From the IMG/VR virus record IMGVR_UViG_2690316166_000013, positions 1 through 5,551 of that record: DNA of 5,551 bases; one strand, 5' to 3'. This DNA is from a virus. Lineage: Duplodnaviria; Heunggongvirae; Uroviricota; Caudoviricetes. Under the pieces are notes generated by a model, which saw only the letters and a list, made by a program, of their open reading frames with translations, searched no databases and was not told where the DNA came from. Of the stretch, positions 1 to 5,551 are shown piece after piece; the first letter of the stretch is position 1; each line of letters starts with the position of its first letter. The translations under genes and the position numbers were made by a program.

Positions 1-3000
1 AAACGTCCGAGACGAACGCCAGGTCTTCTGAAACGGCAGCGGGACAGAGTGCCTCAGCTGCGGCAGGCTCAAAAACAGCGGCTGCGTCGTCTGCCAGCGC
101 CGCGTCAACAAGTGCCGGGCAGGCCTCAGCCAGTGCCACCGCCGCCGGAAAATCGGCAGAAAGCGCCGCATCATCCGCTTCAACAGCCACAACGAAGGCT
201 GGCGAAGCCACTGAGCAGGCCACGGCAGCAGCGAGGTCAGCTTCCGCAGCGAAGACATCCGAAACGAACGCGAAAGCGTCGGAAACCAGCGCAGAATCCT
301 CAAAAACGGCTGCCGCATCGTCCGCCAGTTCGGCGGCGTCATCGGCATCATCGGCGTCTGCTTCAAAAGATGAGGCGACCAGACAGGCGTCAGCAGCGAA
401 GGGCAGCGCCACGACGGCATCCACGAAGGCGACAGAGGCTGCTGGTAGTGCGACGGCAGCAGCTCAGAGCAAAAGTACGGCGGAATCCGCGGCAACGCGC
501 GCCGAGACAGCAGCTAAACGGGCAGAGGATATTGCATCCGCCGTGGCGCTTGAGGATGCAAGTACGACGAAAAAGGGGATAGTACAGCTCAGTAGTGCGA
601 CTAACAGCACTTCCGAGTCACTGGCGGCAACACCAAAAGCCGTTAAGGCCGCGTATGACCTGGCTAACGGGAAATACACCGCACAGGATGCAACGACAGC
701 ACAGAAAGGGATAATCCAGCTAAGCAGCGCGACCAACAGCACGTCTGAAACGCTGGCGGCAACGCCAAAGGCAGTAAAAGCAGCCAATGACAATGCTGAG
801 AAACGTCTGCAGAAAGATCAGAACGGTGCGGATATCCCTGGCAAAGACACCTTTACGAAAAATATTGGTGCCTGCCGTGCCTTCGGTGGGTCAGTAAGCA
901 CAACAACAGGAAACTGGACGACTGCACAGTTTATCGAGTGGCTGGATTCTCAGGGAGCATTTAACCATCCATACTGGATGTGCAAGGGTTCCTGGTCTTA
1001 TGGCAATAATAAAATCATTACTGATACTGGCTGCGGTAATATTCATCTCGCCGGAGCTGTCATTGAAGTAATGGGGATAAAGTCAGCGATGACGATCCGC
1101 ATTACCACTCCGACCACATCCAGCGGTGGCGGAACAACCAACGCCCAGTTTACCTATATTAATCACGGAACAGATTATTCACCTGGCTGGCGAAGGGACT
1201 ATAACTCCAGAAATAAGCCAACGGCATCAGAGATCGGGGCGCTACCGTCAGGTGGAACAGCAGTATCATCAGTTAATCTGGCTTCAAAAGGTCGGGTAGC
1301 CGCGCTGACAGACAATACGCAGGGGGCAGCAGGTCTTGAGTTATACGAGGTGTATAACAACGGATATCCAACAGCGTATGGAAATATCATTCACCTGAAA
1401 GGGATGACAGCCGTTGGCGAAGGTGAGTTACTCATCGGCTGGAGTGGTACAAGCGGTGCTCATGCTCCGGCATTTATTCGTTCACGACGGGATACGACCG
1501 ACGCAAACTGGTCGCCGTGGGCGCAGCTTTACACCTCGGCTCATCCTCCTGCAGAGTTTTATCCAGTCGGTGCACCAATCCCGTGGCCATCAGATACCGT
1601 TCCGTCTGGTTATGCCCTGATGCAGGGGCAGACTTTTGACAAATCTGCTTACCCGAAACTTGCAGCCGCTTATCCGTCAGGCGTGATCCCTGATATGCGT
1701 GGCTGGACGATTAAGGGCAAGCCCGCCAGTGGTCGTGCCGTATTGTCTCAGGAACAGGACGGCATTAAATCGCACACCCACAGCGCCAGCGCATCCAGTA
1801 CGGATTTGGGGACGAAAACCACATCGTCGTTTGATTACGGCACTAAATCCACGAATAACACCGGGGCGCATACGCACAGTCTGAGCGGCTCTACAAGTTC
1901 AGCTGGGGCCCACCAACATAGTCAGACTGGGCCCAGAACGAATAGCGGGAGTCAACCTACTGGAATGTTTCCGGCAGGGAGTACTCAAGTTAGCGGGACT
2001 AATCAGGTTGGTATCAGTGGCTCATTAACCAGTGGCACCTCCCAATGGGTAATCGTTAACGATAACTTGTCGTGCAAAAAACTTTTTGCCACAGACGAAA
2101 TTGTAGCGCGTGGTGGTAATCAGATTCGAATGATAGGTGGGGAGTATGGTGCATTATGGCGTAATGATGGCGCTAAAACTTACCTGCTGCTTACCAATCA
2201 AGGTGATGTTTATGGTGGCTGGAATACATTAAGACCGTTTGCTATTGATAACGCAACCGGCGAACTGGTTATTGGAACCAAACTGTCCGCAAGTCTGAAC
2301 GGTAATGCATTAACAGCAACAAAGCTGCAAACGCCAAGACTGGTTTCTGGTGTTGAGTTTGATGGTTCCAGAGATATTACTTTAACCGCTGCGCATGTTG
2401 CTGCTTTTGCCAGAAGAGCAACGGATACGTATGCCGATGCGGATGGGGGCGTTCCCTGGAATGCCGAATCAGGCGCTTACAATGTCACCCGCTCTGGCTA
2501 CAGCTATATTCTGGTTAACTTCTATACCGGAGTCGGAAGTTGCCGGACCTTGCAGATGAAGGCGCATTACAGAAATGGTGGTCTGTTCTACCGTTCTTCA
2601 AGAGACGGTTATGGTTTTGAGGAAGATTGGGCAGAAGTTTATACCTCGAAAAATCTTCCACCAGAAAGCTACCCAGTCGGCGCACCAATCCCGTGGCCAT
2701 CAGATACCGTTCCGTCTGGTTATGCCCTGATGCAGGGGCAGACTTTTGACAAATCTGCATACCCGAAACTTGCAGCGGCTTATCCGTCAGGCGTTATTCC
2801 TGATATGCGTGGCTGGACGATTAAGGGCAAGCCCGCCAGTGGTCGTGCCGTATTGTCTCAGGAACAGGACGGCATTAAATCGCACACCCACAGCGCCAGC
2901 GCATCCAGTACGGATTTGGGTACGAAAACCACATCGTCGTTTGATTACGGTACTAAATCCACGAATAACACTGGTGCGCATACCCATAGTTTAAGTGGCA

Positions 3001-3359
3001 GCACGAATGCAGCTGGTAATCACAGCCATAGAGATGGCCGTCGATTTAACCCCAGTGTTTTTAAAGATACTTATCAATATGGTTATACAAGCTCAGGTCA
3101 AAATACTTGGGGTGTACAAGGCTCAGTAGGTATGTCTACGGGGTGGTTAGCTAATACCAGTACAGATGGTAATCATAGCCACTCACTGTCCGGCACAGCA
3201 GCATCTGCAGGTGCACACGCACATACTGTCGGTATTGGTGCTCATACGCACTCTGTTGCGATTGGTTCACATGGACACACCATCACCGTTAACGCTGCTG
3301 GTAACGCGGAAAACACCGTCAAAAACATCGCATTTAACTATATTGTGAGGCTTGCATGA
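1..3359 (+). CDS. stf: Side tail fibre protein (lambda Stf-like), 5'-partial; the gene starts upstream of the window
   Basis: Frame beginning at nt 3 is open with no stop to TGA 3357-3359 (translated by hand: [20 protein letters not shown]...). The ORF track starts it at 543 only because no ATG/GTG/TTG occurs earlier in frame. Ala/Ser/Thr/Lys-rich N-terminal region, twin GI(V/I)[11 protein letters not shown](S/T)LAATPKAVK motifs, PIPWPSD...[13 protein letters not shown] module, C-terminal His boxes ([30 protein letters not shown]) and terminal [22 protein letters not shown] match lambda Stf as I recall it. At least 1118 codons in window. Confidence 0.9.
573..836 (+). repeat. Tandem pair of phage-tail-fibre repeat motifs (132-nt period), coding, inside stf
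   Basis: [32 protein letters not shown] (from ~573) and [32 protein letters not shown] (from ~705) lie 44 codons apart; nucleotide copies are diverged but clearly related. Confidence 0.6.
1563..1870 (+). repeat. Intragenic direct repeat, copy A (partner at 2673-2980)
   Basis: Hand alignment of 1573-1860 against 2683-2970 shows 7 mismatches in 288 bp, including a 122-bp perfect block (1689-1810 = 2799-2920). Offset is exactly 1110 bp. Both copies encode the identical peptide [112 protein letters not shown]. Confidence 0.85.
2673..2980 (+). repeat. Intragenic direct repeat, copy B (partner at 1563-1870)
   Basis: Same alignment as copy A; identity decays after ~2970 but the protein stays similar ([20 protein letters not shown] vs [20 protein letters not shown]). 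Confidence 0.85.
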
Positions 3360-4246
3360 TTACGCTCATTCTTTCTGCACCAGTAACAGAAATGGCTGAA
3401 GCATTTAAGCGGGTATTTGCAAACGCAGATAATGTGAATATTGTCGGAAAGCCATTTGAAACAATCAGAGAATTTGACTGCATGGTAAGTGCGGCAAATA
3501 GTTTCGGCCTGATGGATGGCGGCGTTGATGCCGCCATTACCGCATTCTTCGGTACTCAGTTACAGTCCCGCGTTCAGAATCATATTCTTCGTGAATATCT
3601 AGGCGAACAGCCTGTAGGTTCTGCATTTGTAATTGAAACGGGGCATAATCATCACCCCTGGCTGGTACATGCGCCAACAATGCGTGTTCCGCTGACAATT
3701 GACGGAACAGACGCTGTATATAATGCAACCTGGGCCGCTCTGCTTGCCATCTTTCAGCACAATAAAAACGCAACGACAGACAGGAAAATAAAGACGGTGG
3801 TATTCCCTGCAATGGGGGCCGGATGTGGTCAGGTTCCGTTTGAAAGCGTTGCCTGGCAAATGAAGCAGGCATGGGATAACTTTAATAAGAAAACAGAATC
3901 AATTTACTGGGAATACGCACACTCCCGCCAGTCGGCAGTATTTGGCACATATGCATACTGTCCGGGTAATTCTGTTTGCCGTTATGCGGATACTAAATAT
4001 ATTGGATGCGGCGATTATCGGACGTATTGCTCACGTTCCGGGCAGTTCTGTATTAGCCATGTGCATCAGGCTGATGACGTGCTGACTAATAATCGCTCTC
4101 GCCCTGATTCGCATACACACCGGTTTAATCCAGAAAATCCCGTAGGCAATCTCACCTCTGGCGCACATAGCCACGGAAGTAGCATCGTTATTGGTGCTCC
4201 CACCCATACGCTCAATAAACAATATTCTGTCTCTGATATTAAGTAG
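3356..4246 (+). CDS. Macro-domain (ADP-ribose binding / ADP-ribosyl hydrolase-like) protein with Cys-rich, His-box tail-fibre-like C-terminal extension; function unknown
   Basis: 296-codon ORF. ATG 3356 overlaps the stf stop (ATGA, 3356-3359) and has GAGG at 3347-3350. Macro-domain motifs seen in the translation: SAAN (N48, nt 3497-3499), [11 protein letters not shown] (aa 51-61) and [14 protein letters not shown] (aa 148-161), comparable to the NAAN / GGGVDGAI / FPAISTG motifs of YmdB/MacroD. C-terminal aa ~181-296 contain C-x5-C-x9-C-x6-C-x6-C followed by DSHTH...[17 protein letters not shown]. Stop TAG 4244-4246. Confidence 0.7.
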
Positions 4247-4254
4247 AGGTGAAC

Positions 4255-4771
4255 ATGGATTTTAGAATGACTGAACAACCACGGACCATAAAAATTTATA
4301 ATTTGCTGGCCGGAACTAATGAATTTATTGGTGAAGGTGACGCATATATTCCGCCTCATACAGGTCTGCCTGCAAACATCGTGGCATCTCGTTGAAGATC
4401 ATCGGGGTAAAACGGTTTATGACGTGGCTTCCGGCGACGCGTTATTTATTTCTGAACTCGGCTCATTACCGGAAAATGTCACCTGGTTATCCCCGGAAGG
4501 GGAGTTTCAGAAGTGGAACGGCACAGCCTGGGTGAAGGATACGGAAGCAGAAAAACTGTTCCGGATCCGGGAGGCGGAAGAAACAAAAAACAGCCTGATG
4601 CAGGTAGCCAGTGAGCATATAGCGCCGCTTCAGGATGCTGTGGATCTGGAGATCGCAACGGAGAAAGAAACCTTGTTGCTGGAAGCCTGGAAAAAGTATC
4701 GGGTGTTGCTGAACCGTGTTGATACATCAACTGCACCGGATATTGAATGGCCAGTAGCACCTATAGGGTAA
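4255..4771 (+). pseudogene. tfa: Tail fibre assembly protein (lambda Tfa-like), disrupted by a frameshift / internal deletion
   Basis: ATG 4255 with GAGG at 4246-4249. Frame 1 reads [41 protein letters not shown], then IVASR and TGA at 4393-4395. The rest of the Tfa-like sequence ([133 protein letters not shown] 4769-4771) continues in the +1 frame from ~4379. Against lambda Tfa as I recall it, ~22 codons ([22 protein letters not shown]) are missing at the junction, a deletion of 3n+2 nt. Confidence 0.75.
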
Positions 4772-4853
4772 ATTCGTAATGATTACCTAAATACGTTATT
4801 CTTTTGTTAAAAAAGTGATTTTGCTATAGGTAGGGAGTATGTTCTTGGATTAA

Positions 4854-4888
4854 GAATAAAAAATCGCCATGAAAGAGCTTCATGGCGA
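4854..4888 (-). terminator. Rho-independent terminator for a minus-strand transcript
   Basis: Perfect 10-bp stem TCGCCATGAA (4864-4873) / TTCATGGCGA (4879-4888) with 5-nt loop. On the minus strand the hairpin is followed by TTTTTTATT (complement of 4854-4862). There is no T-run after it on the + strand. Confidence 0.45.
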
Positions 4889-5036
4889 GTACATAAACGT
4901 ACAAAATGTGATGAAAGTAGAGTGGCGTAAGCCACTATATTAAGATATGACAATAGCGAAGAAAAGTAAATAACATTTTATGGACGTTTAATTGTTAATT
5001 ATAAAAACTAGAGTGCCCGATATTGTTTATCTTGCT

Positions 5037-5138
5037 TTAAAATAATGTACTCAAACCAAATTTTTGAGCTAAAAGCTCAAATAATATAAATGCAATAATA
5101 ATGTTTAATAAGACAATTAGCTTGCTTTGTATTTTCAT
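5037..5138 (-). CDS. Candidate small hydrophobic protein (33 aa), hypothetical
   Basis: Minus-strand ATG (5138-5136) to TAA (5039-5037) encodes MKIQSKLIVLLNIIIAFILFELLAQKFGLSTLF: basic N-terminus then one predicted transmembrane helix. Possible sigma70 promoter upstream on the minus strand (TTGACT, complement of 5196-5201; 17-bp spacer; TATTGT, complement of 5173-5178) and the terminator at 4854-4888 downstream. No clear Shine-Dalgarno; below the ORF-track size cutoff. Confidence 0.2.
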   Translation of the reverse strand: MKIQSKLIVLLNIIIAFILFELLAQKFGLSTLF

Positions 5139-5520
5139 TTCGGAATACTGTTAAGTAACTTTGATGACCCTAACAATAGATCGGAATTTTCTTAGAGTCA
5201 ATGGTCACTGTTTTTGCTTGCAAAGCAAATGTTTTGGTGGTTATAAGTTGTCTTAATATAGTCACGCATGCAACTTGTTCCATGCGGAGATTAAAGATTG
5301 GAATATAACGCGAAGATGGAATTAAATTACATTTGCAATAATCAATTTATTATTACTCAATAATTACCGATATTATTATTGTAAATTAATCATTAGAGTG
5401 CAAAAAGAAATGTAACGGCAAAATAAGAGGACGATAGCTGAGAAAAAAGCGTGCTTTCCCAATCTGGGGCAAATCACGTCTGAATGACACCTGAAAACAG
5501 GTGGTAGCCTCAAGAAGGCT

Positions 5521-5551
5521 GGTGATGCTGCCAACTTACTGATTTAGTGTA
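5521..5551 (+). mobile_element. IS1 insertion sequence, left terminal inverted repeat (element continues past the window end)
   Basis: GGTGATGCTGCCAACTTACTGATTTAGTGTA matches the first 31 nt of IS1 (IRL GGTGATGCTGCCAACTTACTGAT...) as I recall it. Confidence 0.85.

Follow-up and report, generated by a model that had tools for sequence, protein, structure and literature searches.

Results

A side tail fiber gene with two collar-needle regions

The DNA analyzed here (the window) is the whole 5,551-nt contig CXEP01000296.1 of the draft assembly GCA_001256535.1, and its main gene is a lambdoid prophage stf gene of E. coli, of which the window contains the last 1,118 codons, with a macro-domain gene and tfa downstream. 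The stf ORF (frame 3; all features described below are on the + strand) extends past the left edge of the window and, within it, runs unbroken through 1,118 codons to its stop at 3359. About 274 N-terminal stf codons fall to the left of the contig start, and relatives colinear with the window carry the prophage tail fiber N-terminal domain (PF08400). The number of such fiber loci per E. coli genome has a median of 3 and a maximum of 11; in StfR relatives, the fiber gene comes after lom and gpJ. A search of the fiber against NCBIfam gave no match. The modules run in the order shaft, two fiber repeats, KDQNGADIP motif, A1, and A2, followed by collar 1 and a half needle bearing V1; a partial B1, another fiber repeat, and B2 come next, and collar 2 and a complete, V2-bearing needle close the protein.

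The translation opens with an Ala/Ser-rich shaft (3..557; 37% Ala, GC2 0.79) to which the stf/stfR genes of many E. coli prophages are 92-95% identical in nucleotide sequence. Two Phage_fiber_2 repeats follow (553..791, at 553-659 and 685-791; Pfam PF03406, E 8e-37, two stretches), which constitute direct repeat D2 (107 nt at 75%). This combination of shaft and repeats is that of lambdoid Stf/StfR fibers, but where those have a single gp37-like C-terminal tip and an intact tfa, the window has an extra, truncated tip and a frameshifted tfa. The conserved junction motif KDQNGADIP (792..838) forms the left mosaic boundary of module A, since homology to StfR-type genes ends at 838; it also stands ahead of A1 in Mu S' (8JU3) and in the variable fiber parts of the Mu/P1 type.

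Module A is related to Mu S'

Directly after KDQNGADIP, as in the variable parts of Mu S'/P1 fibers, lies A1 (839..1244), a Mu S' (gp52)-like fiber domain that phmmer aligned to residues 178-330 of PDB 8JU3 (domain E 6e-70, ~80% identity); 8JU3 was also the sole significant structural match of the AF2 model (E 4e-20). An alignment of 20 A1 sequences from several genera (Escherichia, Salmonella, Photorhabdus, Edwardsiella, Yersinia, Citrobacter, and Acinetobacter) had 35 invariant columns, and at least three kinds of C-terminal region stood downstream of A1 in these sequences. A2 (1245..1555), a pre-tip bead ending in ...FIRSRRD..., matched the tail-fiber PHROGs 3299, 37852, and 22609 and was the structural equivalent of the second domain of 8JU3 in a fold search (254 aligned columns). 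This pairing of A2 with the B2-like domain of 8JU3 comes from the fold search only; A2 and B2 were rejected as sequence homologues, their BLASTP match not being significant (E 0.6-1.5). Downstream of A2 there is a Mu-type tip in P0142 and more shaft in P0145. Over the A segment (792-1517), the window matches NH-21 without a difference (100% identity), and ~800 complete E. coli genomes have A without B.

Module B is related to T4 gp34 and Mu S'

Module B1 (2052..2294; Pfam PF21446, E 2e-25) begins at StfR residue 698, and it matched PDB entries 4UXE, 5NXF, and 5YVQ with E about 1e-12. Intact K-12 StfR has the first residue of its Gp34_trimer-like domain at aa 663, which lies 35 aa before the join described below, so B1 comprises only the C-terminal ~two thirds of this domain because the fusion removes the domain start. 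A fiber repeat unit (2295..2402), present in up to 13 copies in representative fibers, separates B1 from B2 (2403..2665), a pre-tip bead similar to Mu S' 324-415 (PDB 8JU3, E 2e-20) with a weak, below cut-off match to Pfam gp37_C. B2 is also present in the P1-like plasmid fiber L010. The distance from the end of the B-type module to the C-terminus was ~200-250 aa or 90 aa in representative proteins, and B occurs without A in ~1,365 complete E. coli genomes.

The sequence-only reading of this DNA had singled out two segments, NIGACRAF...SRRD (aa 287-499 in full numbering, which is the numbering from its start at 543 plus 180) and YLLLTNQ...FYRSS (aa ~722-862). Both lie where it placed them, and the peptides that it quoted agree with the translation. 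The second segment is, however, composite: its first ~45 residues (SQTGPRT...TSQWV) belong to the head cassette V1, and the StfR-derived part begins only at nt 2052.

The terminal collar-needle region is a complete gp37-type tip

Each module is followed by a gp37-like collar and ascending needle strand (copy 1, 1556..1904, Pfam Collar PF07484 at aa 523-570; copy 2, 2666..3014, the second Pfam Collar stretch). The core of copy 1 has ~97% nucleotide identity to 2666-3014 over ~330 nt, including a 122-nt identical run, and the two proteins are identical over ~113 aa. Twenty of the 29 differing codons are synonymous, with the 9 non-synonymous ones located at the edges only.

Copy 2 aligns end to end with the T4 gp37 tip 2XGF (aa 888-1118, E 5e-85) and contains a collar, seven HxH motifs (aa 961-1092), which is the number in gp37 (PMC12609058), and a head cassette. 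The domain limits of gp37 are those given in PMC9659904 and PMC12609058. This cassette, V2 (3015..3161; found in 1,135 of 5,426 genomes and hence common), corresponds approximately to gp37 residues 932-965, which have been named a putative specificity domain (PMC9659904), and aligns with the divergent 2XGF stretch between HxH motifs 3 and 4. The descending needle strand after it (3162..3359) carries four HxH motifs (aa 1058, 1072, 1081, and 1090) and the conserved protein C-terminus, which is near-identical to that of gp37.

In contrast, copy 1 (aa 519-683) has three HxH motifs (aa 591 and 623, with the third, aa 637, at the start of V1), a cut head, and no descending strand. V1 (1905..2051), a rare variable head cassette with a putative role in receptor specificity (25 of 5,426 genomes), is cut ~15 nt short of its natural end; in strains A20, Z1323HEC0477, and BH100N it continues as GKSSSEGNHTHS..., and four descending HxH motifs follow. 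The gene encodes 10 HxH motifs in all, compared with 7 in StfR and in A20.

Based on the 2XGF alignment, the receptor-specificity element is predicted to be the short V cassette between HxH motifs 3 and 4, and the V1- or V2-bearing collar and HxH needle, that is, the "repeat copies," to be the actual receptor-binding units. The sequence-only reading used these copies as mere landmarks, when the specificity cassette lies inside and just after them. Of the two tips, the terminal gp37-like V2 tip alone is complete and could bind a receptor.

The two halves of the gene are joined at an in-frame junction seen once

Local blastn break points, together with direct reading of the junction sequences, placed a fusion junction at 2051|2052 (feature 2040..2065; ..TCCCAATGGGTA|ATCGTTAACG.., protein ..TSQWV|IVNDNL..). 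To its left, window 1-2051 matches the A+V1 fiber of strain A20, and 3-1888 matches NH-21 at 97.5%; to its right, 2050-3360 matches B+V2 StfR-type genes at 98.5%, and 2050-4378, which includes the macro-domain gene, is colinear with the phage-plasmid pAH01-1 at 98.8%. The join is in frame, falls within the Pfam Gp34_trimer domain, and shares 9 of 12 nt with the StfR alleles L013 and L014; beyond the ambiguous TA, 7 of 10 bases match (binomial p about 0.003).

This fusion was seen only here in a comparison covering 5,426 E. coli genomes and 5.8 billion proteins. No record among E. coli genomes, phages, and plasmids spanned the junction, and exact-pattern scans of genome, viral, and metagenome contig collections did not find the junction 21-mer. 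We rejected the junction as a population-level module boundary, given that every StfR-type gene continues with its own sequence upstream of 2052 and that the match to a P1-like fiber begins only at 2301. A recent tandem duplication was likewise rejected as the simplest model, since the synonymous differences between the collar copies match two parental lineages: for copy 1, identity is 97.5% with A-type genes but ~91% with StfR types, and copy 2 shows the reverse. With each copy bearing the synonymous variants of its own lineage, the two represent diverged alleles rather than a fresh duplication. A duplication followed by two replacement events is possible, but needs three steps.

A macro-domain gene and a frameshifted tfa lie downstream

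Between stf and tfa lies a macro-domain ORF (3356..4246; Pfam Macro, E 4e-18), which is carried by the right-hand parent type. The tfa gene (4255..4771), encoding the tail fiber assembly chaperone, is frameshifted by a 65-nt deletion at 4377|4378, as determined by alignment to intact tfa genes; the remnant ORF still matches Pfam Caudo_TAP. We rejected a switch of parent at this break, since at least 113 genomes hold both flanks at 97.9% together with the 65 nt, which indicates a plain deletion. The deletion is unique to this contig. The sole match in an Rfam scan of the window was IS009, within tfa.

Base composition varies between modules

The GC content drops from 0.63 in the shaft to 0.42-0.55 downstream, as the sequence-only reading had observed by eye, although much of this drop results from amino-acid content (37% Ala and a GC2 of 0.79 in the shaft). 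GC3 was 0.56 in the shaft, 0.48 in A1, 0.43 in A2, 0.33 in B1 plus repeat (0.28 in the fiber repeat unit 2295..2402 itself), 0.49 in B2, and 0.27 in V2. This heterogeneity was significant for all modules (p=7.5e-4, chi-square) and when the shaft and its two fiber repeats were left out (p=0.008, chi-square). The composition is thus not uniform, nor does a single homologue span the protein, the best of 5.8 billion proteins covering 61% of it. Modular assembly by recombination, which the same reading had proposed, is borne out by this non-uniform composition and by the genomes with A alone or B alone. Its use of Gly/Ser/Thr/Tyr/Trp-richness to mark the two segments did not hold, with these residues making up 41% of A, 38% of B, and 40% of the whole protein.

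A and B are probably interchangeable pre-tip shaft modules

It had also been suggested that A and B are each an independent distal receptor-binding or adhesin domain imported from other phage families. The anticipated relatives in other phage fibers do exist, the modules being related to Mu, P1-like, and T4 fibers: A1 and B2 have their homologues in parts of Mu S', and B1 in Mu S/T4 gp34. A and B modules also move independently of each other, as such a proposal would have it. Fiber shaft domains with lateral sugar binding are known in other phages, which provides a precedent. However, adhesin domains are expected to be distal and hypervariable, and neither A nor B has this combination: A1 is conserved, and in every homologue examined the A and B modules lie inside the protein, never at its C-terminus, with a recognized Mu-type or T4 gp37-type tip after them. 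Several module orders were found in natural fibers with A/B-type modules, the fold search returned fiber structures only and no lectin or carbohydrate-binding fold, and specificity of the gp37-type tip maps to the head cassette (PMC9659904). We therefore regard the adhesin proposal as highly improbable and conclude that A and B are most likely alternative, interchangeable pre-tip shaft modules, not receptor-binding tips.

In the ordinary population, homologous recombination would reassort A and B with head cassettes, the likely sites being the conserved shaft, the junction motif, the collar, and the needle. Single-tip fibers are known for all four A/B x V1/V2 combinations, which shows normal exchange through the conserved collar.

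Discussion

Origin of the tandem fiber

The gene probably arose by microhomology-mediated illegitimate fusion of two common fiber types, with an A+V1 fiber gene joined end to end to a B+V2 StfR gene, giving a recent, probably defective recombinant. A single in-frame crossover would have cut the head cassette of the A+V1 fiber 15 nt short and continued at codon 698 of a B+V2 gene of the StfR type, which had macro and tfa downstream. Mid-fiber, the product has a tip that is only half present, with 3 of 7 HxH motifs and the returning strand missing, and next to it a Gp34_trimer-like domain that has lost its start. Since its own tfa is frameshifted, we regard the locus as most likely a recent recombinant and probably a defective one, although the in-frame fusion and the absence of decay in either half count against the term "defective." Recombination between the collar copies (122 nt identical) would delete 1,110 nt and leave an ordinary A+V2 fiber. 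For lambda and Rac stfR/tfa, experiments have demonstrated that relaxed homologous recombination takes place (PMC3945230).

Counting against this explanation is that the fusion occurs once, on one draft contig, and the tfa deletion as a second unique lesion on the same contig could reflect a faulty assembly instead of prophage decay. The draft assembler, scaffolder, or gap-closer might have misjoined pieces of two or three ordinary lambdoid prophages (A+V1 and StfR B+V2+macro, for example), which would render both the fusion and the tfa "deletion" artefactual; the separate loci would then read V1-GGTAAATCATC... and ...CATTCGTTA-ATCGTTAAC. The window being an entire draft contig of 5,551 nt, the number of similar loci per E. 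coli genome, the confinement of both anomalies to this contig, and the 122-nt identical run, which would tangle a k-mer graph, all favor such a chimera. K-mer graph misjoins arise within exact repeats, whereas the join lies outside shared sequence and has only 9/12 imperfect matches; a shared 122-mer would swap tips (A+V2 or B+V1) instead of making a V1-to-B edge. A misjoin must also lose both the descending-needle continuation of V1 and ~560 nt of StfR-specific segment upstream of B, and would keep the reading frame 1 time in 3 by chance. We accordingly consider an assembly chimera rather unlikely.

We see only a slim chance that the gene encodes a functional extended or bivalent fiber, ~370 residues longer, in which V1 is a second lateral site or mere lengthening. 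The frame intact over 1,118 codons is consistent with function, as are the 100% identity of the collar 1 and needle strand protein to functional alleles, the many module orders tolerated in natural fibers, and the activity of engineered lambda-P2 Stf chimeras (bioRxiv 10.1101/2022.09.30.509847), and sibling prophages could provide Tfa in trans. Yet copy 1 lacks the returning strand needed by the six-stranded barrel of a gp37-type needle (PMC12609058), the join cuts the Gp34_trimer-like domain, the cognate tfa is frameshifted, and no second occurrence was found in the collections searched. Equally doubtful is the notion that the tandem is a real, usable intermediate in fiber evolution, with V1 and a second pre-tip module parked inside a working fiber; homologous recombination between the collar copies would then resolve the tandem to an ordinary fiber or swap the terminal tip. 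If true, this would be mosaicism caught in the act, with the illegitimate join first and homologous trimming later, or even a bivalent fiber.

Mosaic tail fibers across lambda, Mu, P1, P2, and T4 were already recognized in the early 1990s, and the main point of the sequence-only reading is therefore not new: the mosaicism is real but ordinary, and the one-off fusion alone is unusual. A non-homologous, microhomology-mediated, in-frame join such as the one we favor would be rare in a family whose exchange is thought to be almost entirely homologous. The analysis provides a module map for a very common E. coli Stf family, relevant to the engineering of Stf chimeras, that would place host-range information in the short V cassettes and treat A and B as interchangeable shaft modules. 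It also carries a caution, namely that one-off architectures on short draft contigs call for read-level confirmation before interpretation.

Comparison with known systems

The locus resembles Rac StfR (and mEp332, ev099, 2H10, and Kati) in its shaft, B module, collar, needle, and downstream tfa, with K-12 stfR having 96.6% DNA identity to window 2050-2999. It differs from K-12 StfR in having A1-A2-collar-half needle-V1 in place of the StfR-specific segment upstream of B (aa ~280-697), V2 as its head cassette, a macro-domain gene ahead of tfa, and 10 rather than 7 HxH motifs. Relatives have pinR or pinQ downstream, unlike the window, in which we found no ORF for a Gin/Pin invertase or other recombinase and only weak inverted repeats.

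A1 is ~80% identical to residues 178-330 of Mu S' (gp52; 8JU3) and B2 is homologous to its residues 324-415, and KDQNGADIP marks the constant/variable boundary as it does in Mu S' and P1/p15B-type invertible fibers. In Mu S', however, one domain directly adjoins the other and a short Mu-type tip comes next, whereas here they are parted by the collar and half-needle, and A1-A2 and the B modules each precede a gp37-type collar. The short Mu-type C-terminal tip (..RPIQYCINGTWYNAGSI) is absent from the ORF, so the Mu S'/P1 set of Mu-type tip, invertible segment, and Gin/Pin invertase is not found in the window. B1 resembles the C-terminal region of T4 gp34 (4UXE/5NXF), aligning to ~1036-1106 with E about 1e-12.

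Copy 1 departs from T4 gp37 in that, beyond the collar, it has just three HxH motifs and the greater part of a head, and the returning strand is absent; the V1 and V2 head cassettes span ~48-51 aa compared with ~28 aa in T4. Copy 2 has the organization of the T4 gp37 tip (2XGF) and of the lambda Stf C-terminus: after its collar come seven HxH motifs, and the third and fourth of these flank the variable head.

Gene layout of the fibre locus

The window is one entire contig of 5,551 nt (CXEP01000296.1) from draft assembly NCBI GCA_001256535.1. Its fibre ORF, in frame 3, is open at the left end and stops at 3359 after 1,118 codons, with ~274 N-terminal codons of the gene falling beyond the contig; "full" residue numbers refer to the translation of 3-3359, and subtracting 180 gives those of an earlier, sequence-only reading. 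Among relatives in E. coli prophages and phages, gpJ and lom precede this long gene, which bears the annotation stf or stfR, side tail fibre.

A macro-domain ORF (3356-4246; Pfam Macro, E 4e-18) follows, its start overlapping the stf stop (ATGA), and sits between stf and a frameshifted remnant of the tail fibre assembly chaperone gene, tfa (4255-4771). NCBIfam matches to ADP-ribose-binding and O-acetyl-ADP-ribose deacetylase families were weak and far under cut-offs, and three H-x-H motifs in the last ~50 aa of the macro ORF weakly resemble the descending needle strand of the fibre (E 0.005 in a pairwise comparison). Some prophages of this kind (M114, A20, pAH01-1) carry the macro ORF, and others (STEC313, mEp332, Z1323PEC0010) lack it. 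The window closes with ~780 nt of AT-rich sequence (4772-5551; GC 0.28-0.38) in which neither strand has an ORF of at least 60 aa and the inverted repeats (I1, I2) are all weak; phage mEp332 and the E. coli strains STEC313 and EBJ003 have this stretch 3' of tfa at 97-98% identity. Two further ORFs overlap the Ala-rich shaft, at 49-582 on the plus strand (177 aa, Pro/Arg/Gln-rich, a gene call in the source collection that matched no family) and at 464-793 on the minus strand (109 aa), and both look like by-products of GC-rich repetitive coding sequence.

Module order and composition of the fibre

All fibre modules lie on the plus strand. Pfam, PHROG and PDB sequence searches assigned 3-557 to an Ala/Ser shaft and 553-791 to two Phage_fiber_2 repeats, and alignment placed a conserved junction motif (KDQNGADIP) at 792-838. 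Repeat number differs among alleles, several of which (loci L002, L004-L006) lack the stretch 660-704 between the copies and have one repeat rather than two, which points to unequal exchange inside the shaft too. Segment A begins with A1 (839-1244), which matches the alternative fibre S'/gp52 of Mu (PDB 8JU3) at ~80% identity over residues 178-330, and continues with A2 (1245-1555), a second bead that the fold search sets opposite the second 8JU3 domain. When segment A was modelled with AlphaFold (pLDDT 71), the sole significant structural match was 8JU3 (E 4e-20), with T4 gp34 a weak second; a lectin-like fold was absent from this search. Collar 1 with the ascending needle strand (1556-1904) leads into V1 (1905-2051), the variable head cassette of the first gp37-like tip copy. 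Segment B then opens with B1 (2052-2294), whose homologues are Mu S and the C-terminal region of T4 gp34, and continues through a fibre repeat (2295-2402) to B2 (2403-2665), a homologue of 8JU3 324-415. The stretch 2666-3359, with collar 2, needle and C-terminus, aligns along its whole length with the receptor-binding tip of T4 gp37, 2XGF (E 5e-85).

Peptides quoted from A and B in the sequence-only reading were found at their places, and the GC drop noted there was reproduced (0.63 for the shaft, 0.42-0.55 beyond it), in part because the shaft is 37% alanine (GC2 0.79). Gly/Ser/Thr/Tyr/Trp richness, taken to mark the two segments, did not distinguish them (41% in A and 38% in B, against 40% in the whole protein). 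GC3 was 0.56 in the shaft, 0.48 in A1, 0.43 in A2, 0.33 in B1 plus repeat, 0.49 in B2 and 0.27 in V2, the cassette of the second tip copy. This heterogeneity (chi-square p=7.5e-4 overall; p=0.008 once the shaft and both of its fibre repeats are left out) indicates that composition is mosaic at synonymous sites rather than uniform.

Fibre modules recombine in the E. coli population

At ≥80% coverage, A was present in 800, B in 1,365, V1 in 25 and V2 in 1,135 of 5,426 complete E. coli genomes. All four pairings occur as normal single-tip fibres: A+V1 in A20, A+V2 in M114 and STEC313, B+V1 in Z1323HEC0477, and B+V2 in Z1323PEC0010 and pAH01-1. Such pairings are to be expected where the conserved parts (shaft, junction motif, collar and needle) serve as sites of homologous exchange, and exchange of this kind between lambda and Rac stfR/tfa has been shown by experiment (PMC3945230). 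The mosaic fibre and its modular assembly by recombination, as first proposed from the sequence, are confirmed; assembly of this kind is already well known. A fibre gene on a plasmid that looks P1-like (L010, p96_1414B-1, 3445-4101) carries B2 and collar/needle at 94-97% DNA identity to the window, and thus these parts move between lambdoid and P1-like elements while staying nearly identical.

A singular join at 2051|2052

No homologue carried both halves of the protein, the best coverage being 61% among 5.8 billion sequences (the contig's own ORF aside), rather than one continuous homologue. No record among E. coli genomes, phages and plasmids spanned the middle of the gene, and the junction 21-mer was not found in genome, viral or metagenome contig collections. 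Local alignments revealed a single break at 2051|2052. Leftward of the break, colinearity is with A+V1 fibres, where V1 runs on (GKSSSEGNHTHS...) into the descending needle strand; rightward, it is with genes of the type of StfR, the Rac prophage side tail fibre, from codon 698, and an identity of 98.5-98.8% extends across V2 and the macro gene into the tfa start. The closest right-hand parent allele (L012; pAH01-1, NZ_CP055252.1; 98.8% over window 2050-4378) lies on a 46.9-kb circular lambdoid phage-plasmid with sopA and a ParB/RepB/Spo0J-family partition gene directly after tfa, a layout also seen on an 81-kb plasmid (L014, pB16EC0268-3).

The join reads ..TCCCAATGGGTA|ATCGTTAACG.., and some StfR alleles read ..TCCCATTCGTTA|ATCGTTAACG.., so that 9/12 bases match just before it (7/10 beyond the ambiguous TA; binomial estimate p ~0.003). 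The reading frame is kept (..TSQWV|IVNDNL..) and the join falls off any domain boundary, with loss of the last five V1 residues and all four descending HxH motifs on the left, and of the first 35 residues of a Gp34_trimer-like domain (limits as in intact StfR) on the right. Collar copies share ~113 residues of identical protein; outside a 122-nt identical core, their synonymous differences follow two parental lineages, so the copies are two alleles joined rather than a fresh duplication.

The tfa gene is broken at 4377|4378 by a 65-nt deletion (..CTGCAAACA|TCGTGGCATC.., CA microhomology) that shifts the frame relative to every related tfa. These 65 nt, with both flanks 97.9% identical, are present in at least 113 complete genomes, and no other genome shared the deletion. 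The listed ORF 4319-4771 is the tfa remnant with an out-of-frame start, and an Rfam IS009 match (RF02111; 4533-4731, plus strand; 218 bits, gathering score 117) lies wholly inside tfa coding sequence.

We consider the locus most likely a defective one-off recombinant, since only one tip is complete, the half-tip lacks a strand and tfa is frameshifted. An assembly misjoin would fit a short contig from a draft assembly with a second unique lesion, the tfa deletion. K-mer-graph misjoins, however, arise inside exact repeats; the join has none, and a misjoin would need loss of the V1 continuation and of ~560 nt of StfR-specific sequence, making this origin unlikely. That the fibre works, in a longer or bivalent form, is compatible with its open frame and undecayed sequence, but the missing needle strand, cut Gp34_trimer-like domain, broken tfa and lack of a second occurrence in our searches render this very doubtful. 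The end-to-end fusion itself occurs once only, is of uncertain reality and probably has no function.

The recombinant most likely arose through a single illegitimate crossover, mediated by microhomology, that linked an A+V1 stf to a StfR-type B+V2 stf. The median number of stf-type loci per E. coli genome is three, so the crossover could have involved two prophages already in residence, or a resident prophage and an incoming phage. A present-day allele has an A segment 100% identical to this one, so the event would be recent. Recombination between the collar copies would delete exactly 1,110 nt and leave a normal A+V2 fibre.

Shaft modules and receptor-binding tips

The sequence-only reading had taken A and B for two independent receptor-binding-type adhesin domains. 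An alignment of 20 A homologues (Escherichia, Salmonella, Citrobacter, Photorhabdus, Edwardsiella, Yersinia and Acinetobacter) shows A1 as a strongly conserved module with 35 invariant columns, placed directly after the KDQNGADIP junction. A2-type or B2-type beads come next, and the fibre finishes with a gp37-type collar or a short Mu-type tip. Among 3,431 relatives of B (full HMMER search, 1.84 billion representatives), matches reaching the B2 end typically continue for 200-250 aa (gp37-type tip) or ~90 aa (Mu-type tip), and parts of B recur up to 13 times in one protein. Natural orders vary, as in the homologous fibre proteins P0171 (B2-A1-B1-repeat-A2) and P0145 (A2-repeat-A1-B2-tip). This internal position, conservation and shuffling argue that A and B are exchangeable shaft modules related to Mu S', P1-like and T4 gp34 fibres, and clash with the adhesin reading, which we regard as extremely improbable.

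By homology, the receptor-binding units would instead be the gp37-like tips, previously called repeats. Ordinary members of this fibre family carry seven HxH motifs like gp37, with three on the ascending and four on the descending strand; the architecture of the gp37 needle has been described (PMC12609058). The fibre ORF has ten because copy 1 adds three orphan ascending ones; a complete tip stands only at the C-terminus, and the half-tip inside the fibre is without the strand needed for a six-stranded needle. The V cassettes are the hypervariable, distal elements of the fibre: the stretch between HxH 3 and 4 (V2; V1 in copy 1) is equivalent to gp37 residues ~932-965, and gp37 932-965 is a putative receptor-specificity domain with conserved tip sequence on either side (PMC9659904).
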